A stretch of 50,745 bases of DNA, taken from IMG/VR virus record IMGVR_UViG_3300045988_077113. One strand, written 5' to 3'. How positions within the stretch are numbered: position 1 is the first letter of the stretch; every line of letters begins with the position of its first letter. Positions 1 through 50,745 of the stretch are shown in pieces. The notes under the pieces were generated by a model. It was given only the letters and a program-made list of their open reading frames with translations. It was not told where the DNA came from and did no database searches. The DNA is from a virus. Position numbers and translations under genes: made by a program.

Positions 1-55
1 ACATTCGGGTGTCCGACTGTTTAAGAAAACAAGACGTTGCAATCTATTTGAAAAT
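1..55. repeat. Terminal direct repeat, identical to 50691..50745
   Basis: 55/55 identity read directly. Consistent with the overlap of a circular contig. Confidence 0.95.
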
Positions 56-88
56 ACAGGACTTTTCCGAAGAAAGGAAAAGTGAAAA

Positions 89-1219
89 ATGAAAGAATTA
101 TCCTTCAAAATTCAGGGCGAATTTGTGTGTCACCTGGCCCGTTCCTGGTTCTGGGAAGAAGGCCGCGAATATGAAAAATGCGAAGAACTTCTTCTTTCCT
201 GTCTTATGACGGACGAAATATCCGAAGAAGAAAAGAAGAAAATTGTCGTTGAAATTCTGGAAGGCCGGAAGATCCTTGTCGGCGTGAATGAACTTGAACT
301 TGTAGAGGACGGCGAACGGATCCGGCCGCTGACGGATAAATTCAAAGAGTACCAGAAAAAAGAAATGATCCGAAAAATCGAAGAAGACATCCAGCGGCGG
401 CCGCTGGCTTATCTGGATCCGTATTCTTGCGATAAAAATGTAAATGAATATAAACCGGTTGACAATCTGGTTTTCGATGATGAACGGGACGTTCAGGAAG
501 CCTTCGGGCGTCATTTGACACCATACCAGGAAATCAGATTGTGGGCCTATTCTTCCGAAAATTTATGGTATCATGCCAGCCGACTTCTTCCTGGCTTCTG
601 GGATGAAAAAGAACGAAAGTATCTGGACAACGGCCTTTATTTGATTGAACGGCCTAAACTTGTTTACGAATTGATCGGCGGCCCGGTAACAGATCAGAAC
701 GAAGGAAAACTGTTTGCGCTGTTAAAAAATCACTTGAAATCGCTTGTAGACAATGGGTTCGCCACTGGTGAAAAGGCGAAAGAAATCATACATCGCAATA
801 TGAAGTATGACGCGGCCATGAAAGAAATTAACCAGGAGCGCCAGGAACAGACAGAAGAAAAACCGAATTCCGATCAGCTGAATAGAACCACATCCCCGGA
901 CGATTTCCTTTCCGAATATGGATTGATAGATCCTTCCGGCAATTATTACAGTTGTTCGTTTGCTGGACATCATACGAAAGCACATTATATTTTAAAGGCC
1001 AGGGAAAGAAAGCTTTACGATTTCGACGAAGCCCTGGACAAATTATATTCTGACGGATGGGCGATCATTCGGAACCCAGATCCGGGCGGAAGCGTATTCT
1101 TTGATTACAGAGCCGACAGACGACCAACGAAACGCCAGATCGACACCGCTTTCGACCACATGATAAGATTCAACGAACGCACACTTCCAGGAATTAAAGA
1201 ATATCTTGAACACGAATGA
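89..1219 (+). CDS. Hypothetical protein (376 aa), accessory region
   Basis: Long ORF with SD gaaaggaaaagtgaaaaATG, followed by a hairpin terminator. No family recognised. Confidence 0.6.
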   Translation: MKELSFKIQGEFVCHLARSWFWEEGREYEKCEELLLSCLMTDEISEEEKKKIVVEILEGRKILVGVNELELVEDGERIRPLTDKFKEYQKKEMIRKIEEDIQRRPLAYLDPYSCDKNVNEYKPVDNLVFDDERDVQEAFGRHLTPYQEIRLWAYSSENLWYHASRLLPGFWDEKERKYLDNGLYLIERPKLVYELIGGPVTDQNEGKLFALLKNHLKSLVDNGFATGEKAKEIIHRNMKYDAAMKEINQERQEQTEEKPNSDQLNRTTSPDDFLSEYGLIDPSGNYYSCSFAGHHTKAHYILKARERKLYDFDEALDKLYSDGWAIIRNPDPGGSVFFDYRADRRPTKRQIDTAFDHMIRFNERTLPGIKEYLEHE

Positions 1220-1223
1220 ACCG

Positions 1224-1247
1224 AAGCCGCCAGAAATGGCGGCTTTT
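1224..1247 (+). terminator. Intrinsic terminator
   Basis: AAGCCGCC-agaaat-GGCGGCTT followed by a T run. Confidence 0.7.
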
Positions 1248-1261
1248 CACTTTATAGTGTA
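1247..1261. promoter_or_regulatory. Upstream operator-like site TCACTTTATAGTGTA
   Basis: Near copy of the TACACT-N4-AGTGTA palindrome, about 52 bp upstream of the copy inside promoter 1290..1318. Confidence 0.45.
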
Positions 1262-1289
1262 AAAAGTAAAGAAAATGTATAATAAATAC

Positions 1290-1318
1290 TTGACATATTA
1301 CACTTTATAGTGTATTAT
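1290..1318 (+). promoter_or_regulatory. Sigma70-type promoter with embedded palindromic operator
   Basis: TTGACA, 17-nt spacer, TATTAT. The spacer contains TACACTTTATAGTGTA (1299..1314). Confidence 0.7.
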
Positions 1319-1360
1319 ATAGCCATAACAAAGGAACACACAAGGAAAGGAAATAAGCAC

Positions 1361-2101
1361 ATGGCTAGTATAGAATTTATTCAAAAAAGAGTTGACGGCG
1401 CAAAAACCAAAATCGAAAAACTGAATAAGAAGCTAGAAAGAATTGAAATTGCTAAGGCTTCCAACTATGAAGAAAACAACCCGTATTGTTATAGTGATTA
1501 TGACCTTCGATACACGGTTCGCGATCTTGAAGAAGCGAAGGCAAACCTTCAAAAATACGAAAATCAGCTTGCAAAAGAACAAGAAAAGGCCGGAAGTAGA
1601 AACGTTAAAGCGATCAACGACTTCCTGGACAAATGGTTGCAAAACTGTATTGAATATTTCGATTCGGAATATCAAAAATACCAGGCCGCCCTGGAAGAAT
1701 ATTTTCGAAAAGATCGGGAGTATTGCCAGCGCTTTAACAACAGAAGCAATCAGACACCAGAAGAAAGAAAAGCAGACAGAAAAGAACACGACAAAATGAA
1801 AAGAGATTTCCACGCGGCATGGGCGCACGTTACACAGTTCGATCACGGTTCCCTTCCGTGGCGCGAAACAATGGTGAAAGATCTTACCAAGGAAAGAATT
1901 CGAAAGTATGATGATATTATCGAACGGACAAACGAAATCGTCGGAAAGATAACAGACGCCAGTAAACTTCGAGTTTCTCCGAAAGGAAATCTTGATGGTA
2001 TAGTTATCGGCGAAAAAGGCACAGCAAAAGTCCAGACAATCGGTGCTGGTGGATATAATATTCAGTGTTTCCATTTTCGGACGCTTATCAATCCGATGTA
2101 A
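1361..2101 (+). CDS. Hypothetical coiled-coil-rich protein (246 aa)
   Basis: ATG at 1361 preceded by caaggaaaggaaataagcac. The track ORF starts earlier at a non-ATG codon. Lies downstream of promoter 1290..1318. Confidence 0.6.
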   Translation: MASIEFIQKRVDGAKTKIEKLNKKLERIEIAKASNYEENNPYCYSDYDLRYTVRDLEEAKANLQKYENQLAKEQEKAGSRNVKAINDFLDKWLQNCIEYFDSEYQKYQAALEEYFRKDREYCQRFNNRSNQTPEERKADRKEHDKMKRDFHAAWAHVTQFDHGSLPWRETMVKDLTKERIRKYDDIIERTNEIVGKITDASKLRVSPKGNLDGIVIGEKGTAKVQTIGAGGYNIQCFHFRTLINPM

Positions 2102-2132
2102 AGAAAGAGCCGCCCGAAGGCGGCTTTCTTTC
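2101..2132. terminator. Bidirectional intrinsic terminator
   Basis: AGCCGCC-cgaa-GGCGGCT flanked by an A-rich 5' side and a T-rich 3' side, between convergent genes. Confidence 0.7.
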
Positions 2133-4138
2133 TAATCTTTCCCATTCGGCCCGTGTTCGCAAGCGATTAACTGTTCGCCGCAGATCGGACACCGTTCAAT
2201 TCCACATTTCCAATGGTGCCAGCGGCCGGCCTGGGCGGAACATTCAGGACACACAGCACCGGCGACGCCGTGGAACTTGTCGCCTGGATCCCCGACCTTG
2301 ATCCGGCGGTATGGCTTACCGGCGAAATCGAAGGTTCTTGTCCGACATCCGCACGTCGAACCGATACGGCCGCCGCACTTCTGACAGACCGGAAGATCCG
2401 CCGGGGTTGAATATGTGAATTCATGGACAAGACCGTTCACGAACCGGATTGACTGGACGCGGCCTTCCAGAATTTCGATCCGGTCGATTACCTGATCGAC
2501 AAAATCCTTCAGGATTTCGTTGTCCAGGTCAAGGGCCATCTGGATATAATCGACGTGTTTCTTCGAAACGATCCTTTGAGCGACCAGGAACGCCGACGCC
2601 TTCCTGATGAATTCCAGGTCGGCCAGATCGTCCTTGTCGCCCGTGGCCTGGCTGGCTTCGATCTGTTTTTCATATCCGGCGATCTTATTCACAAGATCCC
2701 TTTTCTTCTTTGCGAATTCTTCTTTCGTCATGGAATCGGGATCGTAAAGATAAAGATCCGTCAACCGGTCGATCGCGGTCTTACACTTATCAAGTTCGCG
2801 TTTCAGAATGGAAAGCTGTTCGGCCGCCGTGTAATCGTCGTCACTGCCTGAAAGGTCGATGTCCGGCAGATACGCACCTTTTCCGACTTCCTGGAAGGCC
2901 AGGGCGTCGAACGTCCGGCGAAGGCTTTCTTTGCTGACCTTCATATTTTCGAATTCTGGCCCCTTCAAAAGTTCCTTTTCCAACTGTTCCAGGGTTTTAA
3001 TGTTCTTAAAATTCTTCTGGATCCGCGCCAGGTTCGCCACATAGTTAAAGATAAACGGACCGATGTAACTTTCGTTTACCGTCTTCGAGTTGTCGCAGTC
3101 CATCATTCGCGACCGCTGTGCGCAACGGTACATTGACGGCCGCCAGCCGTTCGCCCTGGCTCTATCCTTCGACGCGATCATATTCGCGCCGCACTTGCCG
3201 CACACCAGCCGGCCGGAAAAGGTGTGAACGTACTTCCTGGCCCGAAGGTCGGACGTGTCACGGCTGGTTCCGTTTTCATCCATTATCGCGTTGCAACAGT
3301 CGAACTGCTCCTTCGCGATAATGGCCGGGTGATTATTTTCCCGGACGATCCATTCGCTTTCCGGCTTCAATGGGCCGCGGCCGGACTCACGCAAATTATA
3401 CCGATACGTCCCGATATAAAACGGATTTCGGATAATATCACGGATCAGCTTCGAAGTCCACTGGCCGCCACGCTTCGACGCGATCTGATTGTGGTTCAGA
3501 TACCGGGCGATCTTCGTTGTGGAACGAACCCGTTCGTATTCGTCGAAAATAAACTGGACGATCTTCGTTTCTTCTGGATCCGGTTCCGGGAATTTGATTT
3601 CCGGGTTCCAGCGATAGCCGACCGGCATACGCGCACCATTCCACAAGCCCTGTTCCGCACGATCCAGCATGATTCCGGTTACACGTTCGGAAGTCATGTT
3701 CCGTTCAAGTTCGGCGAAAATCAGAATGATTTTCAGCATAGCTTCGCCGATGGCGGTCGAAGTGTCGAACTGTTCGTTCATCGAAATAAATGTGACCTTG
3801 TGGTCTTTTAATTCCTGGTACATCGCCGCGAAGTCCAGAAGATTTCGGGATACACGATCCACCTTCCAGACGATCAGGTGGGAGAATTCCCCGTCCCTGA
3901 CACGCGACATCATTTCTTGAAAATGCGGCCGATCGGTATTCTTCGCCGAATAGCCATCGTCTTCAAAAATCACAAAATCTTCAATTCCTAAAAATTTACA
4001 GTATTCCTTTAACTTTTTACGCTGAAAAGGAAGACTGTCTTTATCAACCTGATACCTTGTCGAGACGCGGACGTATAGGGCCGCTTTCTTTTTCGACCAG
4101 AATTTCAGAATCTTTTTCTTATTCCTGACATAAGCCAT
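2132..4138 (-). CDS. Large serine recombinase (phage integrase type) with extra Cys-rich C-terminal domain
   Basis: N-terminal resolvase motifs ALYVRVSTRYQ and VDRVSRN. Recombinase and zinc-ribbon region (CGKCG), coiled coil, then a roughly 90-aa tail with several CxxC pairs. Confidence 0.9.
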   Translation of the reverse strand: MAYVRNKKKILKFWSKKKAALYVRVSTRYQVDKDSLPFQRKKLKEYCKFLGIEDFVIFEDDGYSAKNTDRPHFQEMMSRVRDGEFSHLIVWKVDRVSRNLLDFAAMYQELKDHKVTFISMNEQFDTSTAIGEAMLKIILIFAELERNMTSERVTGIMLDRAEQGLWNGARMPVGYRWNPEIKFPEPDPEETKIVQFIFDEYERVRSTTKIARYLNHNQIASKRGGQWTSKLIRDIIRNPFYIGTYRYNLRESGRGPLKPESEWIVRENNHPAIIAKEQFDCCNAIMDENGTSRDTSDLRARKYVHTFSGRLVCGKCGANMIASKDRARANGWRPSMYRCAQRSRMMDCDNSKTVNESYIGPFIFNYVANLARIQKNFKNIKTLEQLEKELLKGPEFENMKVSKESLRRTFDALAFQEVGKGAYLPDIDLSGSDDDYTAAEQLSILKRELDKCKTAIDRLTDLYLYDPDSMTKEEFAKKKRDLVNKIAGYEKQIEASQATGDKDDLADLEFIRKASAFLVAQRIVSKKHVDYIQMALDLDNEILKDFVDQVIDRIEILEGRVQSIRFVNGLVHEFTYSTPADLPVCQKCGGRIGSTCGCRTRTFDFAGKPYRRIKVGDPGDKFHGVAGAVCPECSAQAGRWHHWKCGIERCPICGEQLIACEHGPNGKD

Positions 4139-4191
4139 GAAAAGCCCCTTTCCCCAGGAACCGAAAAAAGGGGTATAAAAAAGAAAGCCGA

Positions 4192-4220
4192 TTGCATTTC
4201 CTGGCCTTCTCTGCTATAAT
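4192..4220 (+). promoter_or_regulatory. Near-consensus promoter (TTGCAT-17-TATAAT)
   Basis: Read directly. It faces away from both flanking minus-strand genes. Confidence 0.55.
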
Positions 4221-4226
4221 ATAGGG

Positions 4227-4318
4227 TGCTTATTTCCAATATCAGAAGACCTTTTTCGGTTGCCTGGTATTAAAGCCGGTCAGTGATTGCAGTCGTTGAC
4301 CGGCTGTTTTTTATTTTA
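4227..4318 (+). ncRNA. Candidate ~90-nt sRNA, antisense to the integrase 5' leader
   Basis: Promoter at 4192..4220. Hairpin AGCCGGTCA-N14-TGACCGGCT (4274..4305) plus a T run. No ORF. Confidence 0.35.
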
Positions 4319-4326
4319 TTGTAAAA

Positions 4327-4686
4327 CTACTGAATCAGCCCTTTAATTAAGGCCAACTTGTAAATGTGCTTACAAGGTAAGTGATCGGCTTTGAACGTGC
4401 TACACTGGCACATTCCCAGGCCACACCAGACGTCTTCCTGGTCGTCCGGCGCCTTCATCCTGGCGAAACACTTCTTTTCACTTTCAAAGTGAACGGAAAT
4501 GTCTTCTTCTTTTGCCTGGCGAAGTTTTTCTTTTTGGCCCGGCCGCTGGTGGACTTCATCGGCCCACCGGTGAAACGGCGCTTCGTCGCGTTCTTTTCTC
4601 TTTTGCCATTTCAAGTATATATGGATCTTCCAGGCCCACACGGCCAGGAAGGCGATCACACCGCCGACGGCGATCTTTACGATCAT
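4327..4686 (-). CDS. Membrane-anchored SWIM zinc-finger protein
   Basis: N-terminal TM helix (IAVGGVIAFLAVWAW). C-terminal CQC-x10-CKH matches the SWIM pattern CxCxnCxH. SD ggaaggggtgactgaATG. Confidence 0.6.
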   Translation of the reverse strand: MIVKIAVGGVIAFLAVWAWKIHIYLKWQKRKERDEAPFHRWADEVHQRPGQKEKLRQAKEEDISVHFESEKKCFARMKAPDDQEDVWCGLGMCQCSTFKADHLPCKHIYKLALIKGLIQ

Positions 4687-4780
4687 TCAGTCACCCCTTC
4701 CATAACTTACCGCTATACCTTCGTTTCCGTTAAACTTATAATGACTTAGCCCGGCCTTTTCAGGAAAAGGGGTGGTGCTA

Positions 4781-4909
4781 ATGAAGAAAATTAAATACAT
4801 AGAGTACAAGAGTCGTCGCGTCTACGCGATATATTACGCAAGTTGTCAAGCAATGTATTATAATTTAAGGTTCAACGGAAGGACGAAGATATACTTGTTG
4901 ATCTGGTAG
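4781..4909 (+). CDS. Possible small Tyr/Lys/Arg-rich protein (42 aa)
   Basis: Strong SD aaaaggggtggtgctaATG. It is short and sits between minus-strand genes. Confidence 0.25.
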   Translation: MKKIKYIEYKSRRVYAIYYASCQAMYYNLRFNGRTKIYLLIW

Positions 4910-4940
4910 CTTTTTAAGTAAAGGCCGGGTGGTTTTACAC

Positions 4941-5393
4941 CTAGCCCGTTTCTTTGTTCCGTTCTGGTTCGACCGGCGGAAATTCCTTTTCCAAGTCTTC
5001 CGGTGTCTTCGGCACATCGCCGAACAAGTCTTCGTCCATTACTCCGGTTTCTACCACATTATAAAAGAAATCTCTTACCGTCTGGCGCTGTTCGGCGTCT
5101 AATTTCAAATACTGGTAAACCAGATTATAACTGAAATCATCAAGCCCGAATTCCTTTTTTAATTGTTCCATTGTAGAAGAAGGCGTTTCAATAAACATTT
5201 TCCCTTCCCCAGTCCGAAGCCATTCTTCCGATACACTGAATGTATTACATATATCAAGTATCGTTCTATCAGAAGGATTTCTTTTACCTACTTCGATTAA
5301 AGAAATAGAATTCCTTTTCAGATTAAGCATTTCGGCAAAATCCGCTTGACTCAATCCTTTAGCTTCACGAACTTCTTTGATTCGTGCGTTCAC
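4941..5393 (-). CDS. XRE-family HTH repressor (CI-like)
   Basis: N-terminal HTH (GLSQADFAEMLNLKRNSISLIEVGKRNP). GTG start with SD aaaggaagtgataaaGTG. Adjacent to the operator/promoter cluster. Confidence 0.85.
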   Translation of the reverse strand: MNARIKEVREAKGLSQADFAEMLNLKRNSISLIEVGKRNPSDRTILDICNTFSVSEEWLRTGEGKMFIETPSSTMEQLKKEFGLDDFSYNLVYQYLKLDAEQRQTVRDFFYNVVETGVMDEDLFGDVPKTPEDLEKEFPPVEPERNKETG

Positions 5394-5416
5394 TTTATCA
5401 CTTCCTTTCTGACATC

Positions 5417-5445
5417 AATATAATACATAAATGCTTACTTGTCAA
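5417..5445 (-). promoter_or_regulatory. Repressor-gene promoter (TTGACA-17-TATATT on minus strand)
   Basis: The -35 element lies inside operator half-site 5432..5447. Confidence 0.55.
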
Positions 5446-5523
5446 CAAGGAAAGTTTTATTTTTATGCAAAAAGGTGTTGACAAGTAAGCAATATGGTGT
5501 TATTGTATGATTACAAGTTAGCA
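5432..5523. promoter_or_regulatory. Operator cluster of the lysis/lysogeny switch
   Basis: TGCTTACTTGTCAACA (5432..5447) and its exact reverse complement TGTTGACAAGTAAGCA (5476..5491). A third related site ACAAGTTAGCA is at 5513..5523. Confidence 0.65.
5478..5506 (+). promoter_or_regulatory. Rightward early promoter (TTGACA-17-TATTGT, with TGt extended -10)
   Basis: Read directly. Overlaps operator 5476..5491. Confidence 0.55.
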
Positions 5524-5592
5524 ATGACTTGCAAACAAAAAGGCGCCGCCCGGTGACACGGACGACGCGCTGAATGAAGAAGGGTTTTCTGA

Positions 5593-5769
5593 TTACTTGA
5601 ACCCATAGAAATAAGTGCAACCGCACTTTTCGCATGGCTTCAGATAACCGAAGCGGATATCTTCTGAAACTGGTTTTACATTCTGAACGTGTTCGTTGCA
5701 CTTGTCACAGATGTAATCGCCAGGCTTCACTTCAAGAAAACCTTCTTCTTTCGGAATGACGTAAATCAT
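5593..5769 (-). CDS. Small zinc-ribbon protein (58 aa)
   Basis: Internal ATG of track ORF 5593..6282 with SD ggaaagggggcttcgaaATG. Two CxxC pairs (CDKC, CEKC). Confidence 0.5.
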   Translation of the reverse strand: MIYVIPKEEGFLEVKPGDYICDKCNEHVQNVKPVSEDIRFGYLKPCEKCGCTYFYGFK

Positions 5770-5829
5770 TTCGAAGCCCCCTTTCCTATGAACTAGATCG
5801 GGGCCGGGTGGGCTGGCCCTGATAGGTTC

Positions 5830-5858
5830 ATTATAAAGGGGAAGACTTCGAAAATCAA
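5830..5858 (-). promoter_or_regulatory. Leftward promoter (TTGATT-17-TATAAT on minus strand)
   Basis: Read directly. Upstream of the zinc-ribbon gene and convergent with promoter 5478..5506. Confidence 0.5.
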
Positions 5859-5878
5859 TCAGAAAGGGGGCCGTATTT

Positions 5879-6043
5879 ATGGCAAACACCACCACAGACA
5901 AAAACGTCACGATGGTTCGCAAGGAAGACAAGAACTTCATTCGTTCCATGATGTCACTTCCCCAGGATAAGAAAATTCTGATCCAGGGAATTCTGATCGG
6001 CCTGGAACTGCAAGAGAAACAGACCGCAACGGCGGCCAGATAA
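5879..6043 (+). CDS. Small hypothetical protein (54 aa)
   Basis: ATG preceded by cagaaagggggccgtattt. Too short for the ORF track. Confidence 0.4.
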   Translation: MANTTTDKNVTMVRKEDKNFIRSMMSLPQDKKILIQGILIGLELQEKQTATAAR

Positions 6044-6126
6044 GGCCGCCAGCACTTCGACATATAGCCAGGAAGCCGACTGCAATCGGCGGCTGATGTT
6101 GGAAATAAGCGAAAGGAAAATTGAAT

Positions 6127-6999
6127 ATGGATAACTTTAGAATCTATGACACAATGTTCCGGTTCAATAACGAAACCGAACGACCTTCGGGCGGATGGCG
6201 ACGGAACCAAAAATTCGTTCACGACGCGTATTTTTGGAAAATTCTTAATATGCTGAAAGACGAAGGCTTCGACGTACACCACGACGAAAGCGTTTCGAAG
6301 ATAATTCGAAGGAATTACATCAAAGGAAAACGAAGGGACTTAAAATTCAAGGCCCAGCGATTCCCGGCCGGATTCGAAATTGTTTTCTATCAGGACATTG
6401 TCCACGAAAACCCACACGGCGGTTTTTATGATTTTGATAAACGGCGAAAAATGCCGTACCTGATTGGGCTTCAATATGAAAAATATATGAACCTGATCGT
6501 AAAGAAAATAAAAAGCCTTGTGGAAGTTAAAGACAGATCCAGCATAAAGACAAAGACAGCGGAAGAATGGGTAAAAGCGCGGTACGTTGAATCGTGCCAC
6601 TATCCGCAAACCGACATGAATTTTGATCTTCACGCGCTGGACGGGCAAGGCCACGAAGGCCAGTATGGCCTGGATCGCGACGGAAAAGAAATTCACAACG
6701 GCGACATTAAATACTTCCGTTACTGGTACGACGGCCGGGTATATCGCGGCCGGGTATATTACGATCTCAACATGAACTGGATTGTTATTTTAAACAAAAA
6801 GGACACACGCGTCATTTCTTGCTGGGAATTGTTCGATCTTACGCCGGAAGACAATCTTCACCGGATGAAGGATCCGACGCGATCAGAAGGTTATAAAAAG
6901 TATATGGCCCACCTGGAAAAACTGAAAGCCGAAAAGACAAAGGAACTTGTGATTGAGTTAAAACGCCGCGGCTATGCGGTGAAGATAGAAAGGAAATAA
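6127..6999 (+). CDS. Hypothetical early protein
   Basis: Long ORF. ATG at 6127 follows aaaggaaaattgaat. First gene of a tightly packed four-gene set. Confidence 0.6.
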   Translation: MDNFRIYDTMFRFNNETERPSGGWRRNQKFVHDAYFWKILNMLKDEGFDVHHDESVSKIIRRNYIKGKRRDLKFKAQRFPAGFEIVFYQDIVHENPHGGFYDFDKRRKMPYLIGLQYEKYMNLIVKKIKSLVEVKDRSSIKTKTAEEWVKARYVESCHYPQTDMNFDLHALDGQGHEGQYGLDRDGKEIHNGDIKYFRYWYDGRVYRGRVYYDLNMNWIVILNKKDTRVISCWELFDLTPEDNLHRMKDPTRSEGYKKYMAHLEKLKAEKTKELVIELKRRGYAVKIERK

Positions 7000-7003
7000 G
7001 CAA

Positions 7004-7291
7004 ATGACAAGAGAAAAATTCCGGTTCGCCGGACAGACCGTGAAGGTCAGAAACGAGATCCCGAAGTTCGGCGGCGCCGACTTCACAATCGAAGACTACT
7101 GGCAGAATGTGACCGGTGGCCTTTCCTGGATGGATAGCAACGGCAACCCGGCCGCGATGATGTACGCGATCCGTACCGGTTCCCAGGGCTTTGACGTCCC
7201 GATCGACAACGAAGTCGTTTATGGAAAGATCGGTTCACTTGGTTATCTGTTCCATGTGTCCGAACTGATTCTTCCGAAGGAAGGAGAATAA
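7004..7291 (+). CDS. Hypothetical protein (95 aa)
   Basis: ORF with SD. 4-nt gap to the upstream gene. Confidence 0.55.
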   Translation: MTREKFRFAGQTVKVRNEIPKFGGADFTIEDYWQNVTGGLSWMDSNGNPAAMMYAIRTGSQGFDVPIDNEVVYGKIGSLGYLFHVSELILPKEGE

Positions 7292-7295
7292 GCAC

Positions 7296-7535
7296 ATGGC
7301 ACAGGAAAAGGAAATCAAGAATTTTGTTTTCAACTACACCGACGGCACAAGCGAAACCGTCGAAAAAGGTTTCTTTTGCAAGATCAAAGACGAACCAAAC
7401 GGCGAAGCGACATTGAGTTTCGAAATGGTCGGCGTATCTGGAAAAGACCTGACACAAATTGTTCTGGGTTGCGTCGAGTTGGGCGCGCGCCTGGGAATGT
7501 TCGATAAAAAGGAAAGTGAGGAAATAAGCGAATGA
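7296..7535 (+). CDS. Hypothetical protein (79 aa)
   Basis: ORF with SD ggaaggagaataagcacATG. Its stop overlaps the next start. Confidence 0.55.
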   Translation: MAQEKEIKNFVFNYTDGTSETVEKGFFCKIKDEPNGEATLSFEMVGVSGKDLTQIVLGCVELGARLGMFDKKESEEISE

Positions 7536-8503
7536 GTAACACAAAGGAAAGCGTTGTTTTGAAGTATGACGACATGGGGATCCCGTCCATCATGTTAAAG
7601 GTTGAGAACACGGCGAAGACGCCGGAAGAAGCCGACAGAATGTTCTTCGTCCGTGGCGTTGAGTATGACGCCGTATATCTTAGCCGCTTCGTGAATTGCG
7701 TCCAGAACGGCCGCGCGTATTCGTTGCCGCTGATGGATCCGAAGGTATCTATCGACATGGACGACGCGATCGCGGCTTGTAGAAAGAAGGGCGCCGGCTG
7801 GCACTTAATGACCGCCATCGAATGGAACTGGTTAAGAAAGCACACGAACCAGGATGTCCACGGGAACACCTGGAAAGGACACTATTACAATGACGAAACC
7901 GAAGTCGGAATCAAAGTCCCGAACACCTGGCGGACGCTGACCGGATCCGGCCCGGCTTCCTGGTTCCATAACGGGAACAAAGAAACGGGCGTCGCTGATA
8001 TGGTCGGCCTGGTTTGGAAAATGATCGCCGGTATTCGCTTAAAGAATGGCGTCTTCCAGTATATGCCAGACAATGACGCGGCACACCCGGAAGCCGACCT
8101 TTCCGAAAGAAGCCAGGAATTCAAGGAAGTTTACATTGACGATCTTCCGTTCCCGGATCCGGTAAAGATTGGCCCAGGCGAAGACGGCTTGATGATTACA
8201 ACGTCCGGCGAAGTGGAAGGCTGGGACGCGGTAAGACGTCACGACGTGATTGTTGATCTTCCGGCGGACAAGATCCCGGAGATCTTAAAGGATTTAGGGA
8301 TCATCACCGAAGGCATGGACAAAGACGACGCCTGGTTCGCGGCTGACGCAGACCTGGACGAAGCGGTGTGTTACGTCTCTGGCGGTTACAACAACGCTTC
8401 GAACGCTGGCCCTTCCGCGTTGAGCTTGAGCAGCCCGCGTTCGTACGTCTGGTCGAGCATCGGCTTCTTCTCCGCTTGTTTAGGGGAACCTGTTATCCGG
8501 TAA
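7532..8503 (+). CDS. Second (remote) DGR target protein, C-type-lectin/FGE-like fold, paralog of 43147..44208
   Basis: Full-length similarity to the fibre-module target (for example RFVNCVQNGRAYSLPLMDPK vs KFINCIVDGLAYSWPLVDPK, and TGSGPASWFHNG vs TGSGPATWFHDG). The C-terminus contains VR2. Confidence 0.85.
   Translation: MSNTKESVVLKYDDMGIPSIMLKVENTAKTPEEADRMFFVRGVEYDAVYLSRFVNCVQNGRAYSLPLMDPKVSIDMDDAIAACRKKGAGWHLMTAIEWNWLRKHTNQDVHGNTWKGHYYNDETEVGIKVPNTWRTLTGSGPASWFHNGNKETGVADMVGLVWKMIAGIRLKNGVFQYMPDNDAAHPEADLSERSQEFKEVYIDDLPFPDPVKIGPGEDGLMITTSGEVEGWDAVRRHDVIVDLPADKIPEILKDLGIITEGMDKDDAWFAADADLDEAVCYVSGGYNNASNAGPSALSLSSPRSYVWSSIGFFSACLGEPVIR
8375..8478 (+). repeat. DGR variable repeat 2 (VR2)
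   Basis: 104 bp aligned by hand to TR 44737..44840. 11 mismatches, every one at a TR adenine. Confidence 0.9.
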
Positions 8504-9265: not shown

Positions 9266-9367
9266 AGCAAAGGCGCAACGTCAAAGATTGGAACCCTGAC
9301 ACGTTGCGCCCGATGTTGGCCGCGTTTTGGACACAGCCTTTAATAATTATAGGGGAAACGTGAAGAA

Positions 9368-9598
9368 ATGTCAATCGTTAGAAATACAAGGGAAGCCCCG
9401 TATTACATAGACGGAATCACAAAAGCAACGGATCCGTTCTGGAAAGTCTATTGTACTTGTGGTTTCACGTTCCTTTCGTGCATTTCAAACGGCAAGTGTC
9501 CGAAATGTGGGCGCGTGGAAGGTAAACGAATGTTAGGCGATAGAACTTTCGAAGAAGTCGTCGCGGAACGCGGACAGCCGCGGCCGCTGGAAGAATAA
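9368..9598 (+). CDS. Small zinc-ribbon protein (76 aa)
   Basis: Contains CTC...CPKCG. SD ggggaaacgtgaagaaATG. Confidence 0.5.
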   Translation: MSIVRNTREAPYYIDGITKATDPFWKVYCTCGFTFLSCISNGKCPKCGRVEGKRMLGDRTFEEVVAERGQPRPLEE

Positions 9599-9685
9599 AT
9601 CAGAATAAATCAGAGTTTATCAGAGTAAATCCGACTTTATCAGAGTTTATCAGAGTTTATCAGAGTTTATCAGAGTAAATCAGAG
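9596..9685 (+). repeat. Nine tandem 10-bp iterons (WWWATCAGAG), tubC-like centromere
   Basis: Exact 10-bp period: TAAATCAGAA, TAAATCAGAG, TTTATCAGAG, TAAATCCGAC, TTTATCAGAG x4, TAAATCAGAG. Immediately upstream of the wHTH + tubulin gene pair. Confidence 0.8.
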
Positions 9686-9703
9686 AAAAAAGGCGGTGAA
9701 ACT

Positions 9704-9961
9704 TTGAACAGACTAGGCTTTATCGTTTTGTCGATCCTTTCCCAGAATGGGGCGACGAACAAATTATCTTCGATGTCGGTTCAGGAGATTTCCGACACGG
9801 AAGAATTCGGTTATAAGCCGAACACAATCTTCAAAAAAATCAAGGAATTCGAAGACGCCGGATATATCGGCCGCGGCTTGAAGGAAGGCCGGGCGGACAC
9901 GTTCTTCATCACGGACACCGGACGGGAATTCCTGGAAGGGGCGAAGCATGAAACGAAGTGA
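9704..9961 (+). CDS. tubR: Small winged-helix DNA-binding protein, TubR-like centromere binder
   Basis: 85 aa with a wHTH pattern (VQEISDTE...NTIFKKIKEFEDAGYIGRG...FFITDTG). TTG start after aaaaaaggcggtgaaact. Position is between the iterons and the tubulin gene. Confidence 0.6.
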   Translation: MNRLGFIVLSILSQNGATNKLSSMSVQEISDTEEFGYKPNTIFKKIKEFEDAGYIGRGLKEGRADTFFITDTGREFLEGAKHETK

Positions 9962-10026
9962 CGCCAGAACAGAAACGACAACCGGACGAAAAACGTCCGA
10001 TAATACCACGAAGGGAGAATCAGAAC

Positions 10027-11061
10027 ATGAAAAATAAAATTGCTTTTGTAGCGGTCGGCCAGGCCGGCGGCAACATTGGACAGCTTTTCGAAGATCGGGG
10101 CTTTAATGTCCTTTACATCAACACGTCCCAGGAAGACCTTGACACCCTGGAACACGCAAAATATAAATACCACATTCCGGGCGGTGAAGGTTGCAATAAG
10201 AACCGCCGGAAGGCGAAACAGCTTGTGATCGACGACTTCGACCGTATCGCGGCAGAGATCGAAACCAAAATCAAGGCAGATCTGACGTTCGTTATCTTCG
10301 CCAGCGGCGGCGGAACCGGTTCAGGAGCCGGCCCGATGTTGATTGACCTTTTAATCGACGAAGGCCGCGCCATCGGAGCGATCACGATTGTTCCGGGGCA
10401 GAATGAAAGCGTGAAGGCGCATATCAATTCTTACGACTGTTTTTCAGAGTTGACAGAAATCGCCGGAACGGCCGCTTGCTTCATCCTGGACAACGACCGC
10501 GCGGAAAAATTGTCAATCAATACTTCCTTCGTGGACGACTTCTGTTCGTTCCTGGAAGTGCCGGAGAAACACAAGAGCGTGAAGGGCAATATCGACAAGG
10601 CCGAAATCATGGAGACACTAAGCGCCCACGGAATGGCCCTTGTGACGTCCAGAAAGGCCCAAAACAGCGCCGAAACGATTAAGGCTATACAAGATAACCC
10701 TTACGCCCCTATCGAGGGCGACAGAGCCGTTAAATACATCACAGCGTCATTGTCGGACGGTGTGACCATGCCGGAACTGGAAAAAGCGATCGGAACCCCG
10801 ATCGACACCTTCCAGACCTTCAATGACGAAGGAACCACAATTTGTTGTATTTCGGGGCTGACTTATCCACAATCACGTCTGGATATTGTGTATAAAAAGG
10901 TGGATGAAAACAAAGAGGTGATCGAAAAGAACCTGACGGCGACCAGAGAAACCCGGATGAAGAAATCAATTAACTTCCTGGACGACCTGGAACCGCCGAA
11001 GAAGGCGGCAGAAGCCCCGAAGCCAAAGTCAAAACGGGACATTATGAGCAAGTATTTATAA
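10027..11061 (+). CDS. tubZ: Tubulin/FtsZ-superfamily GTPase, TubZ-like
   Basis: Tubulin signature GGGTGSG (FASGGGTGSGAGP) and N-terminal VGQAGGNIG phosphate-binding loop. SD gaagggagaatcagaacATG. Confidence 0.8.
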   Translation: MKNKIAFVAVGQAGGNIGQLFEDRGFNVLYINTSQEDLDTLEHAKYKYHIPGGEGCNKNRRKAKQLVIDDFDRIAAEIETKIKADLTFVIFASGGGTGSGAGPMLIDLLIDEGRAIGAITIVPGQNESVKAHINSYDCFSELTEIAGTAACFILDNDRAEKLSINTSFVDDFCSFLEVPEKHKSVKGNIDKAEIMETLSAHGMALVTSRKAQNSAETIKAIQDNPYAPIEGDRAVKYITASLSDGVTMPELEKAIGTPIDTFQTFNDEGTTICCISGLTYPQSRLDIVYKKVDENKEVIEKNLTATRETRMKKSINFLDDLEPPKKAAEAPKPKSKRDIMSKYL

Positions 11062-11074: not shown

Positions 11075-12148
11075 ATGGCGGAAATTAACTGGATCAAACT
11101 TCGTGTAGATATGTTTGACGACGATAAAATCAAAATCATTCAATCCATGCCGGAAGGTGACGCGATCCTGGTCGTGTGGATCCGTATTCTTGCGCTTGCC
11201 GGTAAATGCAACGCGAAGGGCCTTGTCTTGATCGAAGACGAATTCCCATATTCTGACGAAATGCTGGCGACTATTTTTAATAAGCCGCTGGCAACCGTCC
11301 GTCTGGCCCTTACGACCTTCGAGAAGTTCCACATGATCGAGAGAACCGAAAAAGGGATCTACATAACCAACTTCGAAGCGAACCAGAACAGCGAAGGCAT
11401 GGAGAGAATCAGAGAACAAAACCGGATCAGACAGCAGAGACAGCGCGAAAAGAAACGCGCCCTTCTAGGAATGTCACAGCCAGAAGGAAAGTCAGAACCC
11501 CAGGGAGAACCGGCGGTTTTGCCGAAAGAAGAAGCTGAAATCGTGACCGATGGCGTGACGCGTCACGTTACATCACGCGTGACAAATCGTGAAATCACGG
11601 AACAGAATAAGAATAAGAATATAGATATATATAATATATCTTCTAACGAAGATATAGTCGAAACTTCGGAAAAAAAATCCGAAGTTCCTGACCGCGAACC
11701 GGAAAAACCAAAGAAAACGGATCGGTTATCTTATGACCTGATCGTGGAAGACTTTCGAAATACCTGTCCAGCCCTTCCGGGAATCCGCGGATTGAATGAT
11801 ACCAGGAAAGCGAAGATCCGTTCCCTGGTGAAAGAACTGGACAAACTGAAAATCTTTCCGGGGCTGGAACCTGAAAAGAAATTACACATCATTTTCCAGG
11901 CGGCACAGAACAGCGACTTTCTTTCCGGCAGAAACGGGAAATGGAACGGTTGTTCCTTCGACTGGCTGATAAATAAAACAAACGCCTTGAAGACGCTTGA
12001 AGGCACATATCAAAACAAAGGGGGATCCGCAAATGGAAGAATCAATCCAGGAGACAATGAACAAAATGTTTCCCGACCTGATGGCACGACGAGCGCGGCG
12101 CTTGAACGGTTCCGAAGAAACGCCGGACGATCAGACACCGAAATATAA
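11075..12148 (+). CDS. Phage replisome organizer (DnaD-like N-terminal domain)
   Basis: The N-terminus MAEINWIKLRVDMFDDDKIKIIQSMPEGDAILVVWIRIL is typical of the replisome-organizer family. Confidence 0.75.
   Translation: MAEINWIKLRVDMFDDDKIKIIQSMPEGDAILVVWIRILALAGKCNAKGLVLIEDEFPYSDEMLATIFNKPLATVRLALTTFEKFHMIERTEKGIYITNFEANQNSEGMERIREQNRIRQQRQREKKRALLGMSQPEGKSEPQGEPAVLPKEEAEIVTDGVTRHVTSRVTNREITEQNKNKNIDIYNISSNEDIVETSEKKSEVPDREPEKPKKTDRLSYDLIVEDFRNTCPALPGIRGLNDTRKAKIRSLVKELDKLKIFPGLEPEKKLHIIFQAAQNSDFLSGRNGKWNGCSFDWLINKTNALKTLEGTYQNKGGSANGRINPGDNEQNVSRPDGTTSAALERFRRNAGRSDTEI
11541..11660. promoter_or_regulatory. Candidate replication origin inside the organizer gene
   Basis: CGTGAC direct copies and three palindromes: GTGACGCGTCAC 11555..11566, TCACGCGTGA 11573..11582, CGTGAAATCACG 11588..11599. 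An AT-rich block follows at 11603..11660. Confidence 0.45.
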
Positions 12149-12896
12149 TTGCCCGATTTGCCATGATAGCGGCTGGGAAATGGTGACAGGCCCGGACGGG
12201 TACGAATTTTGTCGCCGGTGCAAATGCGGAATCTTCGAACGCCAGGCAATCGAAAGAAAGCTGTCCTTCGCCACTATCCCGAAGGAATTTGAAGGCCACA
12301 CGGTCGAGAATTTCAAAACCGACTGTTATAGCACGAAGGAGAATCGCGAACTGGCCCAGATGGCGAAGGTTATCGCTTCCCGGTACGTGGAACAGTTCGA
12401 CGAGATCCGGGAAACCGGCAAAGGCTTATATTTTTATTCACAGACAAAGGGATCCGGTAAAACCAGGCTGGCCGTGTCCATTGCAAACGACCTGATCCAG
12501 AAAAAGATCATCGCGGCAAAGTTCGCGACCACAATTCAAATTCTGGATCAGATAAAAGCAACCTGGGGCGGCGAATGGAAGAACGAAGAAACCGAACAGA
12601 AATTGATCCAGGAAATCGTTTCGGTTCCCGTCCTGGTGATCGACGACATCGGCGTCGAAGCCGTGAAACCCTGGATCAATGAGCGTTTTTATAATATCTT
12701 AAACGGACGCATGATTGAAAAGCGCGTGACGATATTTACAAGTAATTGCCGCATGGAAGAATTAAACTTCGACGACAGAATCATAAACCGAATTATCAAA
12801 ATGGCGTTGCCGGTGCAGTTCCCGGACGAGTCAATCAGAACCGCAATCGCCAGGAAGGAGAACGACGACCTTCTGGATCGCCTTCTGGGGGCGTGA
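12033..12896 (+). CDS. DnaC/IstB-like AAA+ helicase loader
   Basis: Walker A TKGSGKTRL, Walker B VLVIDDIG, N-terminal Cys-rich knuckle (CPICHDSGW). ATG at 12033 after aaagggggatccgca. Confidence 0.8.
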   Translation: MEESIQETMNKMFPDLMARRARRLNGSEETPDDQTPKYNCPICHDSGWEMVTGPDGYEFCRRCKCGIFERQAIERKLSFATIPKEFEGHTVENFKTDCYSTKENRELAQMAKVIASRYVEQFDEIRETGKGLYFYSQTKGSGKTRLAVSIANDLIQKKIIAAKFATTIQILDQIKATWGGEWKNEETEQKLIQEIVSVPVLVIDDIGVEAVKPWINERFYNILNGRMIEKRVTIFTSNCRMEELNFDDRIINRIIKMALPVQFPDESIRTAIARKENDDLLDRLLGA

Positions 12897-20390: not shown

Positions 20391-20951
20391 ATGAACACGG
20401 TCGAACCGATCCGGGACATGGATCTTGTTATGGATCTGGCCGACTATCTGAAATCGAACAACGAAAGAGATTACGTCCTTTTTATGTTCGGAATTTATAC
20501 GGGCCTTCGAATTTCTGACATCCTAAAATTTCGCGTGCGCGATGTAAAGGGGAAAGACGCGGCTTATATTCGAGAGAAGAAAACCGGGAAGGAAAAGCGT
20601 TTCCCGATAAATTCAGAGTTACGGCCAGTTATCGACGAATATATTTCCGGGAAGCGTGACTTTGAATATCTGTTCCGTTCCCCGAACTATCAGAACAAAG
20701 CAATCACACGCCAGCAAGCCTATAACATATTATCGGCGGCCGGCCGGAAGTTTGGCCTGGACAGCATAGGAACGCACACATTACGAAAGACGTTCGGCTA
20801 TCATATGTACCAGCAGACACACGACGCCGTGACACTGAAAGAGATCTTCAACCATGCAGACATAAGCGTCACACTTCGGTACATCGGGATCAACCAGGAC
20901 AACAAAGACAAACTGATTAAGGGCCTGACCTTCAAGCATGGCCGCAAATAA
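20391..20951 (+). CDS. Small tyrosine recombinase (186 aa)
   Basis: Catalytic signature GLRISD, HTLRKTFGYHMY and HADISVTLRYIG (R, HxxR, H, Y). Confidence 0.85.
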   Translation: MNTVEPIRDMDLVMDLADYLKSNNERDYVLFMFGIYTGLRISDILKFRVRDVKGKDAAYIREKKTGKEKRFPINSELRPVIDEYISGKRDFEYLFRSPNYQNKAITRQQAYNILSAAGRKFGLDSIGTHTLRKTFGYHMYQQTHDAVTLKEIFNHADISVTLRYIGINQDNKDKLIKGLTFKHGRK

Positions 20952-32728: not shown

Positions 32729-32892
32729 GGCACGATTCCGGGGCCGACATTCAAAAAACGGCCGTCCATCTTGCGATGGCAACAAACACCGGAATAGATT
32801 TTTTCACAGATCTTCCGCTTGACGAGTATATCGACATAGCAAAGGAAGTGAGCGAAATTGGCAAAGAAAACAAGCTACGAACTGGCGCTTGA
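32324..32892 (+). CDS. Predicted -1 frameshift extension of the chaperone (E+E'-like)
   Basis: T TTT TTA at 32707..32713. The -1 frame stays open for 59 sense codons (32713..32889) to TGA at 32890..32892, overlapping the tape-measure start. Confidence 0.55.
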
Positions 32893-44719: not shown

Positions 44720-44840
44720 AAAAACGCTTGCCGATTGTCTCTGGCAGTTACAACAACACTTCGAACGCTGGCCCTTCCGCGTTGAACTTGAACAACCCAC
44801 GTTCGAACGTCAGGACGAACATCGGCTTCTTCTCCGCTTA
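44720..44840 (+). repeat. DGR template repeat (TR)
   Basis: Non-coding copy of VR1/VR2. It carries A at every position where the VRs differ. Begins 23 nt after the avd stop. Confidence 0.9.
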
Positions 44841-45051
44841 TCCTTTTAGCCAGACGGGAAAGTTTACGGACTTTTCACAGTGCAAGAAAGGGAAAAGGGA
44901 TCTGTTTCAGTTCCGGCCATAGCGCCGGAGAAATTAAATTTGCTGATAATGCGGTTAGTACCTGGCGAAAGCCAGTGAAGGGCGTAACGATCAGTGCCGC
45001 GCCCACGCCGAAAGCAAGGGCGCACAATTCCAACGAAAGGAATTAACCACA

Positions 45052-48726: not shown

Positions 48727-48898
48727 GGGCGCAAGGGAAGGGGGTATAAGGGGGAAACAAAATCCCCGGCCGATTCCCAGGCAGAACAGGCGGCGCGGAA
48801 ATGCCCGTCTGAACGCGCCAGCCGCCCAGATTTGCGTTTTAATGCCGTAAGTGGACAAATACACAATAAGCCCCGGAAAATCCATTTCCGGGGCTTTT
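48719..48898 (+). ncRNA. Candidate structured ncRNA (~170-180 nt)
   Basis: Promoter(s) upstream. GC-rich internal hairpins (GGGG-N9-CCCC; GGCGGCGCG-N16-CGCGCCaGCCGCC). Strong terminator. No SD-led ORF. Confidence 0.4.
48870..48898 (+). terminator. Intrinsic terminator
   Basis: GCCCCGGAAA-atcca-TTTCCGGGGC followed by TTTT. Confidence 0.75.
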
Positions 48899-48916
48899 AT
48901 GCGTTTATGGGATATA

Positions 48917-48966
48917 TTCTGATATTCTCTGACAAACTCTGATTTATTCTGATTTACTCTGATCCT
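48917..48966 (-). repeat. Second cluster of five 10-bp iterons, inverted relative to 9596..9685
   Basis: CTGAT/CTGAC at 48919, 48929, 48939, 48949 and 48959. Reverse complements include exact TAAATCAGAG and TAAATCAGAA units. Confidence 0.75.
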
Positions 48967-49174
48967 TCTTTTTCAGGGTGGCGTCGTTCACAATTTCGAT
49001 GAATTGTGATTCCGGAATTCCGGTCGCCTTCGAAAATAAATCAATATACCGGCAATAATCGGCGTGACAGCGTTTGAAGTCTTCCTTGTCATCCGAAAAG
49101 ATCGCCTTTTCCATTTTCTCATACGCGCCCACCGTCTTTTCGACGGCGGCTTCAAATGCTTCTTTCCATTCCAT
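48944..49174 (-). CDS. Hypothetical protein (76 aa)
   Basis: ORF downstream of 49218..49670 on the minus strand. Its 3' end overlaps the iteron cluster. Confidence 0.5.
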   Translation of the reverse strand: MEWKEAFEAAVEKTVGAYEKMEKAIFSDDKEDFKRCHADYCRYIDLFSKATGIPESQFIEIVNDATLKKKDQSKSE

Positions 49175-49217
49175 GATTCTTCCTTTCCAGGCGGCCGGCC
49201 TGGCCGCCCTGTTCTTA

Positions 49218-49670
49218 TTATGCTAATATTTCCGAAGCTACTTGTCTATAATGTTTCTGAATTGCGGTTGACGTCTTCACGGCCTGGCTGTCTTCGCCAT
49301 AGTCCCAGGCTTCGCGCTGGATCTGATCGGTGAGATCTTCGGCCATCTGGTCAAAGTGTGCGGCAACTTCTGAACGGTCAATTTCGGTTCTGATTTCGAT
49401 TGTTGCGTGTTCCTTGTTCCAGGTTCGCGCTTCGGCGGCTTTGAACCGGTCGCTGATGAAAATTCCGATCGGCCAGAAACAAAGGTTGTGCTTCGCCTGG
49501 CTGATTTTGCCGCGCTTTGAAATCTTGCGAAGGCTATGATCGGAGCCGCACCAGTCAGGATCCCCGGCGGAGTGTTCTACGAAGTAAAGTCCATTATCAT
49601 TCTTGAAGAAGGCGTCCTTGATTTCCACGACCATTCCTGTTTTGATTTCCATTCCGTTTTTATCTAACAT
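49218..49670 (-). CDS. Hypothetical protein (150 aa)
   Basis: ORF with SD aagaaaagaggtaatcaaaATG. Downstream of promoter 49704..49732. Confidence 0.6.
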   Translation of the reverse strand: MLDKNGMEIKTGMVVEIKDAFFKNDNGLYFVEHSAGDPDWCGSDHSLRKISKRGKISQAKHNLCFWPIGIFISDRFKAAEARTWNKEHATIEIRTEIDRSEVAAHFDQMAEDLTDQIQREAWDYGEDSQAVKTSTAIQKHYRQVASEILA

Positions 49671-49703
49671 TTTGATTACCTCTTTTCTTTATCTTATGTT
49701 TAT

Positions 49704-49732
49704 ATTATACACTATAAAGTGTAATATGTCAA
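49704..49732 (-). promoter_or_regulatory. Consensus promoter TTGACA-17-TATAAT with embedded operator
   Basis: On the minus strand the -35-to-operator stretch CTTGACATATTACACTTTATAGTGTAT is identical to promoter 1290..1318. Operator at 49708..49723. Confidence 0.7.
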
Positions 49733-50498: not shown

Positions 50499-50714
50499 AT
50501 GTATAATAAAATAGATTTGCGCGAAGTTCCGGCTGAAAGGCTGAAAGAAATTAGTCTGGATCTGGTAGACATTGACGTCAAGGCGCCAGAATTCGAACCG
50601 AACAGACAGTTCTATTTCATGGCGAAAGCCAGGGACTACGTGAAGCGGAAGTCCGCTGAATTAGGACGTCCCATGACCTTTTTTACTCAAACATTCGGGT
50701 GTCCGACTGTTTAA
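50499..50714 (+). CDS. 71-aa ORF resembling the N-terminal extension and first motif of a MiaB-type methylthiotransferase (gene fragment)
   Basis: It ends ELGRPMTFFTQTFGCPTV*. TFGC is where the MTTase domain (xTxGCQMN) starts. This rests on recollection, not a search. Confidence 0.4.
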   Translation: MYNKIDLREVPAERLKEISLDLVDIDVKAPEFEPNRQFYFMAKARDYVKRKSAELGRPMTFFTQTFGCPTV

Positions 50715-50715
50715 G
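50686..50715. promoter_or_regulatory. Candidate attP core: near-perfect 30-bp palindrome
   Basis: CTCAAACATTCGG-GTGT-CCGACTGTTTAAG with 11/13 arm matches. Weaker T-rich symmetry extends to about 50673..50727. Confidence 0.35.
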
Positions 50716-50745
50716 AAAACAAGACGTTGCAATCTATTTGAAAAT
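50691..50745. repeat. Terminal direct repeat, identical to 1..55
   Basis: Exact identity read directly. Confidence 0.95.

Follow-up and report, generated by a model that had tools for sequence, protein, structure and literature searches.

What use is a tubulin motor to a small temperate phage that has no need of plasmid inheritance? The question is raised by IMG/VR virus record IMGVR_UViG_3300045988_077113, a stretch of 50,745 nucleotides (hereafter the window) in which a phased iteron array, a gene for a winged-helix protein and a gene for a tubulin-superfamily GTPase follow one another between positions 9596 and 11061. This is the order of a centromere (tubC), the gene for its binding protein (tubR) and the gene for a filament-forming GTPase (tubZ) in the type III, or TubZRC, partition systems. 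Tubulin-based DNA segregation has so far been studied only on the virulence plasmids of Bacillus and on c-st, a plasmid prophage of Clostridium botulinum. Judged by every sequence, structural and architectural criterion testable here, the cassette belongs to the TubZRC family, and near-identical copies of the phage that carries it are integrated in bacterial chromosomes.

The gene assigned as tubZ (10027..11061, plus strand, ATG start) encodes a 344-aa GTPase of the tubulin/FtsZ superfamily that falls in the clade of c-st TubZ. It carries GQAGGN at residues 11-16 and, at residues 94-100, a GGGTGSG box that fits the signature (S/A/G)GGTG(S/A/T)G and is invariant among its relatives. Pfam recognizes in it both the Tubulin domain (PF00091, E 5.7e-15, over the gathering score) and TubZ_C_3 (PF22340, E 2.6e-13, 50.2 bits against a cut-off of 27). 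When the protein is compared by profile and structure with the TubZ, PhuZ and FtsZ families, c-st TubZ comes first by sequence and by fold. The closest Protein Data Bank (PDB) entries by sequence are the two c-st TubZ structures 4XCQ and 3V3T (E 5e-36 and 2e-35), followed by CetZ (1.7e-10), FtsZ (about 1e-8 or weaker) and PhuZ (3e-4 to 2e-3), all at least 25 orders of magnitude behind in E value. An AlphaFold2 (AF2) model (predicted local distance difference test score, pLDDT, 82.7; predicted template modeling score, pTM, 0.84) likewise finds its best Foldseek matches in c-st 3V3T and 4XCQ (template modeling, TM, scores 0.77/0.87), with 6e-25 standing against 5e-18 in the comparison of TubZ with FtsZ, CetZ and PhuZ. 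A global alignment carries T100 and the catalytic-loop residue E200 of c-st TubZ, both of which have been mutated experimentally (PMC5322520), onto T97 and E193 of the phage protein; E193 is invariant in both of our alignments of relatives (A1 and A3), while T97 is invariant in A1 and conserved at 90% or more in A3. The C-terminal tail is predicted to be disordered (pLDDT below 50 at residues 308-333) up to a short terminal helix, and both its basic character and its tip (...KSKRDIMSKYL) are kept in relatives, the SKY(M/L) ending being common with c-st TubZ.

Two other identities for the GTPase were considered and set aside. Membership in the PhuZ family was rejected because the matches are weak and confined to the N-domain (the PHROG PhuZ profile covers residues 2-148), the genome is only 50.7 kb, and a TubR adaptor is present. 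A cellular FtsZ was rejected because the protein scores 29.7 bits against the FtsZ equivalog TIGR00065, far under the cut-off of 295.2.

Immediately upstream, and separated from tubZ by a spacer of 65 nt, lies tubR (9704..9961, plus strand, TTG start), which encodes an 85-aa winged-helix protein, the putative centromere-binding protein. Its matches in the PDB are c-st TubR (6TEY, E 5e-6) and pBtoxis TubR (4ASO, E 0.02), and the sequence of 6TEY is that of CST190, the product of the gene directly upstream of c-st tubZ. The AF2 model (pLDDT 84.8) adopts a winged helix of topology H-H-H-E-E-H whose best Foldseek match is pBM400 TubR (4ASN; TM 0.81, root-mean-square deviation 1.8 Å). Within the tubR-tubZ spacer, at 9981-10001, there is also a GC-rich hairpin, ACCGGACG-AAAAA-CGTCCGAT, that has no T-run on the plus strand and may set the ratio of TubR to TubZ expression.

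The third component, the putative centromere, is an array of nine 10-bp units arranged head-to-tail on the plus strand at 9596..9685 (array A), with the core (A/G)TCAGA(G/A) and with a register that is perfect throughout. Seven of the nine units, starting at 9606, 9616, 9636, 9646, 9656, 9666 and 9676, match WWWATCAGAG exactly; the other two are degenerate, unit 1 being TAAATCAGAA, with a final A, and unit 4 TAAATCCGAC. Its first unit starts at the stop codon of an upstream 76-aa open reading frame (ORF), and 18 nt separate its last unit from tubR. Over the whole window the 10-mer is observed nine times against 0.72 expected by chance, and in 200 dinucleotide-Markov simulations no cluster of at least three phased RTCAGAR motifs appeared, whereas the real window has exactly two. 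The number of units is 8, 9, 10 or 12 in phages whose TubR is identical, and the position and orientation of the array 5' of tubR are kept in relatives. An earlier note on this DNA had described nine phased iterons, an 85-aa winged-helix protein 3' of them and a 344-aa tubulin-family protein with the GGGTGSG and GQAGGN motifs. The iterons are confirmed, with the two degenerate units as a refinement; the match to 6TEY and the model match to pBM400 TubR bear out the winged-helix protein; and the GTPase stands as described, grouping with c-st TubZ and not with cellular FtsZ.

The cassette is widespread, and its parts are conserved together. TubZ has 684 relatives at E ≤1e-5 in a 90%-clustered protein collection, 155 cluster representatives at E ≤1e-30 among 1.84 billion, 85 loci in IMG/VR, and relatives in at least 176 species-representative genomes of the Genome Taxonomy Database (GTDB). 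In the best 80 of these 176 GTDB loci, which constitute our genome survey, nearly all hosts are Lachnospiraceae and relatives (Blautia, Anaerocolumna, Hungatella, Acetatifactor, Butyrivibrio). There, tubR stands directly 5' of tubZ in 73 of 80 loci, and an upstream array (at least three exact hexamers spaced at multiples of 10 bp) is present in 62 of 79. Altogether the order iterons, tubR, tubZ is kept over about 150 loci, and this synteny, with the homology and fold, supports the tubC-tubR-tubZ organization that had been proposed for an integrase-encoding phage. The iteron core, ATCAGAG in the clade of the window, differs as TubR diverges, variants including ATCCAAG/ATCCGAG, ATACGAG, TAAGAG, TGAAA, TAAAAC and a 20-bp compound unit; such a shift of the core alongside the protein is the behavior expected of a DNA-binding protein and its site. 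We found no near-identical DNA among deposited phages, where TubZ is shared (at about 30% identity) by c-st, D-1873 and phage G alone, and in the library searched no paper links TubZ to prophages of Lachnospiraceae or Blautia.

Where, then, in the life of the phage might the cassette act? Its surroundings are those of an early operon. A lysogeny switch (4941..5506, both strands) consists of a cI-like helix-turn-helix (HTH) repressor on the minus strand (4941-5393; Pfam HTH_3, 1e-15) and divergent promoter-like sites, one on the minus strand (5445-5417) and two on the plus strand (5395-5424 and 5478-5506). The plus-strand sites look like the promoters that head a rightward early operon holding tubRZ: intergenic gaps in this block are short, and a scan for sigma-70 consensus promoters and for terminators found neither a plus-strand terminator nor a promoter near tubR between 5506 and 12500. 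Immediately 3' of tubZ are genes for a replisome organizer (11075..12148, plus strand; PF09681, 2e-45) and a DnaC/IstB-like helicase loader (11997..12896, plus strand; PF01695/PF00308), and the order Zn-ribbon ORF, array, tubR, tubZ, replisome organizer, DnaC-like loader recurs in relatives.

The 76-aa ORF directly 5' of array A (9368..9598, plus strand) has a small zinc ribbon and no match in Pfam, PHROG or NCBIfam. Homologs occupy the same place, directly 5' of tubC, in 34 of the 80 genome loci, and a Zn-ribbon ORF of any type does so at 58 of 141 loci, so that such a neighbor is frequent rather than universal. Two unrelated-looking types can be distinguished (DPFW..CxxCG..CPxCG and CPxCG..VWNL..CGNCG), and in many relatives the final codons of the ORF (..QSKSE*) are encoded by the first iterons. 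The accessory protein TubY was sought with c-st TubY (CST188) as a phmmer query against the 718 window ORFs of at least 40 aa, with a best E value of 0.09, and no MerR domain was found by Pfam among the 29 window ORFs scanned. The zinc-ribbon protein, a non-universal neighbor without a family match, was considered as a possible substitute for TubY. At its start codon the ORF overlaps a perfect sigma-70 consensus (TTGACA-17-TATAAT; 9346-9374, minus strand) that runs antisense to the early operon; the A. xylanovorans relative has TTGACA with a -10-like TAATAT (4 of 6), and the site may serve as an antisense promoter or may have arisen by chance from coding and ribosome-binding sequence.

The carrier of this operon is a 50.7-kb, lambda-like-headed temperate phage of Blautia/Lachnospiraceae, common in the human gut. 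The final 55 bases of the window (50691-50745) repeat positions 1-55, a terminal repeat that makes the record a circular assembly of 50,690 bp. We also considered that the window might be an excised prophage flanked by attachment-site (att) repeats and rejected this, because 55 bp is a typical assembler k-mer overlap and serine integrases, as far as can be reasoned, make no 55-bp duplications. The earlier note had further proposed a large serine recombinase and a candidate attP. The recombinase is real: the ORF at 2132..4138 (minus strand, 668 aa) has three Pfam domains, Resolvase (PF00239), Recombinase (PF07508) and Zn_ribbon_recom (PF13408), its nearest NCBIfam models are XisF and CcrB, and a serine recombinase co-occurs with the cassette in relatives. 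The attP can now be mapped to the window ends, with the corresponding attL and attR found in relatives.

The attP region (50499..50745, plus strand, continuing into 1-55 on the circle) includes an ORF, 50499-50714, that serves as a phage-borne replacement N-terminus for a host gene of the MiaB family. In attL, as seen in relatives L001 (493-666) and L003, a host aldehyde dehydrogenase gene and a 57-aa ORF (MKKK...TTFGC-PTV*) abut window position ~1. In attR, as seen in contigs L502 to L507 (L502, 3688-5172), ORF 50499-50714 reads ...TFFTQTFGC-QMNARDSEKL... into a 494-aa UPF0004/radical-SAM/TRAM gene of the MiaB family, with MutS/MutL or RuvAB genes of the host on its 3' side. Crossover takes place at the ..TFGC.. 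codons or close to them (about 50695-50710, equivalent to 5-20). These hybrid genes and host flanks show that the recombinase targets a methylthiotransferase gene, the phage being inserted at its TFGC codons. The phage supplies a 60-aa N-terminus with its own promoter-like sites, leaving the host gene intact at attR, and the original N-terminus remains at attL as a 57-aa stub. Two complete chromosomes of Anaerocolumna contain relatives, and so does a contig of 329 kb from an isolate of Blautia glucerasea. Circular-junction contigs also occur, namely the window itself and L505 (50,180 bp).

On this basis we give an even chance to the reading that the cassette acts on the free circular phage genome, after infection or after excision, rather than in constitutive plasmid maintenance. 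It is favored because the lysogen is integrated, the cassette appears to belong to the repressor-controlled early operon with replication genes adjacent, no TubY is found, and tubRZ has no recognizable promoter or terminator of its own; AlpAC of prophage CGP3, discussed below, provides the precedent. Beyond the homology, anatomy, conservation and integration documented above, TubR binding, TubZ polymerization, the timing of expression and the nature of the cargo are what we infer from the sequence. TubR dimers would cooperatively coat the nine iterons of array A, and probably also the five to six units of a second array described below. With one iteron per helical turn, the TubR sites would lie on one face of the DNA and yield a bent nucleoprotein segrosome. 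TubZ with GTP would form treadmilling filaments, with T97 in the nucleotide site and E193 in the catalytic loop. The disordered basic tail of TubZ, with its ...SKYL tip, would engage the TubR-DNA complex such that the filament drags the DNA. The cassette would thereby position or segregate replicating phage circles and might possibly guard a not-yet-integrated circle from loss at cell division.

The second array (array B; 48907..48963, minus strand), which the earlier note had missed, has five good 10-bp-phased units (48917-48963) and one degenerate unit, with a motif that matches array A. It belongs to a minus-strand unit (48868..49732) comprising a promoter (49732-49704, 12/12 consensus), a 150-aa ORF (49218-49670), a 76-aa ORF (48944-49174), the array and a strong bidirectional terminator (48896-48868, 12 bp stem) that also closes the lysis operon; the array thus lies between the stop codon of the 76-aa ORF and the terminator. 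Neither ORF has a family match in Pfam, PHROG or NCBIfam. Array B is inverted with respect to array A, from which it is 11.3 kb distant across attP on the circle and 39 kb distant in the prophage. It is kept in the same place and orientation in about 12 contigs whose neighboring protein is 49-62% identical, and the prophage of A. xylanovorans carries both arrays. From its motif, phasing and conservation it is a probable second TubR-binding site. Nonetheless, in an unbiased survey of 80 homologs of the 150-aa protein, only 8 had a phased array 3' of the gene. These 8 belong to the lineage of TubZ phages, and several other complete TubZ prophages lack the array, so that array B is lineage-specific and outside the core system; where tubC is of the 20-bp ATCCAA type, a specific scan of IMG/VR likewise found one array per contig. 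The TubZRC cassettes of these phages do not in general have a second array. As to the gene beside it, the exact 150-aa protein occurs in 1,604 blocks of a public assembly collection, of which 14 include contigs of 0.2-1 Mb, and homologs of about 50% identity are encoded in many IMG/VR contigs in which neither a TubZ context nor a phased array was seen, which suggests a mobile, moron-like gene.

A real though minority possibility is that the phage leads a dual life: in certain hosts or circumstances, such as a lack of attB or a reversible excision, partition of the c-st kind would stably maintain it as a plasmid prophage of low copy number, and integration would be the alternative. Several observations weigh in this direction and hence against an action limited to the free circle of an infecting or excised phage. 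To our knowledge, all experimentally characterized TubZRC systems serve the inheritance of plasmids or plasmid prophages, the latter being the home of the closest characterized homologs of the cassette. The circular-junction contigs from metagenomes fit an episomal state as well as they fit replication intermediates, and the assembly breaks exactly at attP, the pattern that a sample with both integrated and circular forms should give. A scan limited to consensus sequences could have missed a weak or non-canonical promoter within the AT-rich array A. The array B unit, near the prophage end, has a consensus promoter of its own, as is typical of genes expressed in lysogeny, which hints at a role outside the lytic program. 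The cassette moreover adjoins a replication module, and, more speculatively, a 186-aa tyrosine-recombinase ORF of the phage might resolve dimers of the circular genome. Against this, every relative inspected in an isolate or on a long contig is integrated, the consensus scan recognized no autonomous promoter for tubRZ, the replication genes are of phage type (organizer and loader) with no plasmid Rep, and no TubY was found, though it is required for stable maintenance in the systems studied (PMC7762940).

The pair of inverted arrays, which in the integrated state lie near the two prophage ends, invites a further proposal that we regard as doubtful: together they might form a bipartite centromere that brackets the segment with att, integrase, repressor and early genes and that acts specifically on the excised circle, and not as a plasmid partition locus. 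Pairing or looping of the two arrays would be one way to do this, and bi-orientation of the circle on antiparallel filaments another. Were the proposal true, an integrating phage would have a heritable, reversible episomal phase, or an organizer of its replication factory. The segment between the arrays may also undergo inversion through them; one contig has an inverted junction. In that contig, L017 (IMGVR_UViG_3300045988_008683, positions 1-7049), the lysis-side flank of array B is joined, in inverted orientation, to the Zn-ribbon ORF and the early genes through a hybrid-looking array of seven units. Either the two inverted arrays have recombined and flipped the segment, or the contig is an assembly chimera; the latter is plausible because many short-read contigs (L002, L600-L603) terminate within array A.

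It is improbable, in our estimation, that the iterons serve mainly as an origin or operator, with tubRZ acting in replication or regulation and DNA movement secondary or absent. RepX of pXO1 and the pBtoxis minireplicon are parallels for such a role of tubRZ. The arrays are AT-rich (70%, versus 52% for the window), array A lies immediately upstream of the replication genes, and in known systems the complex of TubR with tubC also acts as a transcriptional repressor (PMC6009700). Yet the gene for the replisome organizer holds a separate AT-rich zone (11550-11700, GC 0.31-0.36) with a palindrome at 11563-11592 and three copies of AGAATA at 11604-11621, in the usual place of the origin in such phages, which makes it a more conventional candidate than the arrays. 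The iterons track TubR and not the organizer, tubR being adjacent in 73 of the 80 genome loci and the organizer in only 40, and the conserved polymerization and catalytic residues and tail of TubZ argue for selection on filament function. Very improbable is a TubZ directed at the host, for instance to interfere with FtsZ and cell division, with TubR a mere transcriptional regulator: the protein shares a superfamily and a detectable N-domain similarity with FtsZ, but it is far under the FtsZ threshold (29.7 against 295 bits), and the strict tubC-tubR-tubZ linkage and a conserved tail of the TubR-binding type fit a centromere-coupled motor.

TubZRC thus emerges as a common conserved module of integrating prophages in Lachnospiraceae, dominant bacteria of the human gut, and tubulin-based DNA handling extends from plasmids to ordinary integrating temperate phages. 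Cultured lysogens exist (Blautia glucerasea MSK.18.94 and Anaerocolumna xylanovorans DSM 12503), and the cassette offers a minimal TubZRC system for biochemistry, of two proteins and a 90-bp centromere.

The remainder of the genome encodes a lambda-type gpA terminase, portal, capsid E, tail genes, a diversity-generating retroelement and an endolysin. The tyrosine-recombinase ORF mentioned above (20391-20951, just 5' of the terminase genes) has only the catalytic domain (PF00589, 95 bits) and is kept in relatives L001 and L003. The retroelement consists of bAvd (44278-44697), a template repeat (about 44720-44850) and a reverse transcriptase (45052-46179), with two variable repeats that differ from the template at template adenines. 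Variable repeat 1 is at the 3' end of a tail-region ORF (43147-44208), and variable repeat 2 is remote, at the 3' end of an early-operon ORF (7532-8503, FGE-sulfatase/C-type-lectin-like) about 1.1 kb 5' of tubC. A 1377-aa ORF, 32858-36991, presumed to be the tape-measure gene, contains large imperfect tandem repeats at 35698-36254, with periods of 132 and 165 bp and a 33-bp unit nested in them.

Among known systems, c-st (3V3T, 4XCQ, 6TEY) is the nearest, being the top match for TubR by sequence and for TubZ by sequence and fold. It too is phage-borne, with the same order of iterons, tubR and tubZ, and its TubZ shares the nucleotide-site Thr, the catalytic Glu and the C-terminal ...SKY(M/L) tip. 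The two differ in that identity is only about 30% and that c-st is a 186-kb plasmid prophage, whereas the window is a 50.7-kb integrating phage. In c-st, tubC is split, extends over about 350 bp and combines two types of iteron; the intergenic space that holds it is 500 bp long and has a predicted promoter (PMC6009700). That of the window is a compact 90-bp array of a single 10-bp unit type between two ORFs, with no recognized intergenic promoter region of its own. The distant inverted array is a feature of the window phage, unlike c-st, and TubY, encoded downstream of tubZ in c-st, is not found in the window. The cassette accordingly departs from the characterized TubZRC systems in having no TubY and in residing, as far as the evidence goes, on no extrachromosomal replicon; some clostridial chromosomes, for their part, encode TubZ and TubY without TubR (PMC7762940, citing earlier work).

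The Bacillus plasmids (pBtoxis, pXO1, pBM400, pBsph) have the same three-part logic. The phage TubZ matches the TubZ folds of Bacillus thuringiensis and Bacillus cereus, and the phage TubR matches that of pBM400, but Bacillus TubZ shows no sequence similarity by phmmer among the matches listed and has a different Pfam C-terminal domain family. The Bacillus systems use 12-bp repeats in blocks on large virulence plasmids, and bent or ring segrosomes have been described for c-st and pBtoxis (PMC6009700).

Phages supply three further comparisons. Gp138 of Bacillus phage G, a 498-kb megaphage, is 29% identical over 87% of the query. PhuZ of the phiKZ-type phages is likewise a phage-encoded GTPase of the tubulin superfamily; it works without a TubR-type adaptor or a centromere and positions the phage nucleus of jumbo phages during lytic growth. 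Lacking adaptor and centromere, PhuZ is a poor analog, and a better one is AlpAC of CGP3 in Corynebacterium glutamicum, which also pairs a cytoskeletal NTPase with an adaptor in an integrated prophage, although its NTPase is of the actin superfamily and has no homology to the TubZRC cassette. AlpAC is induced early, its adaptor binds repeats upstream of its own operon, and the pair links the excised circular DNA to filaments and is needed for efficient replication of the circle (PMC4446434).

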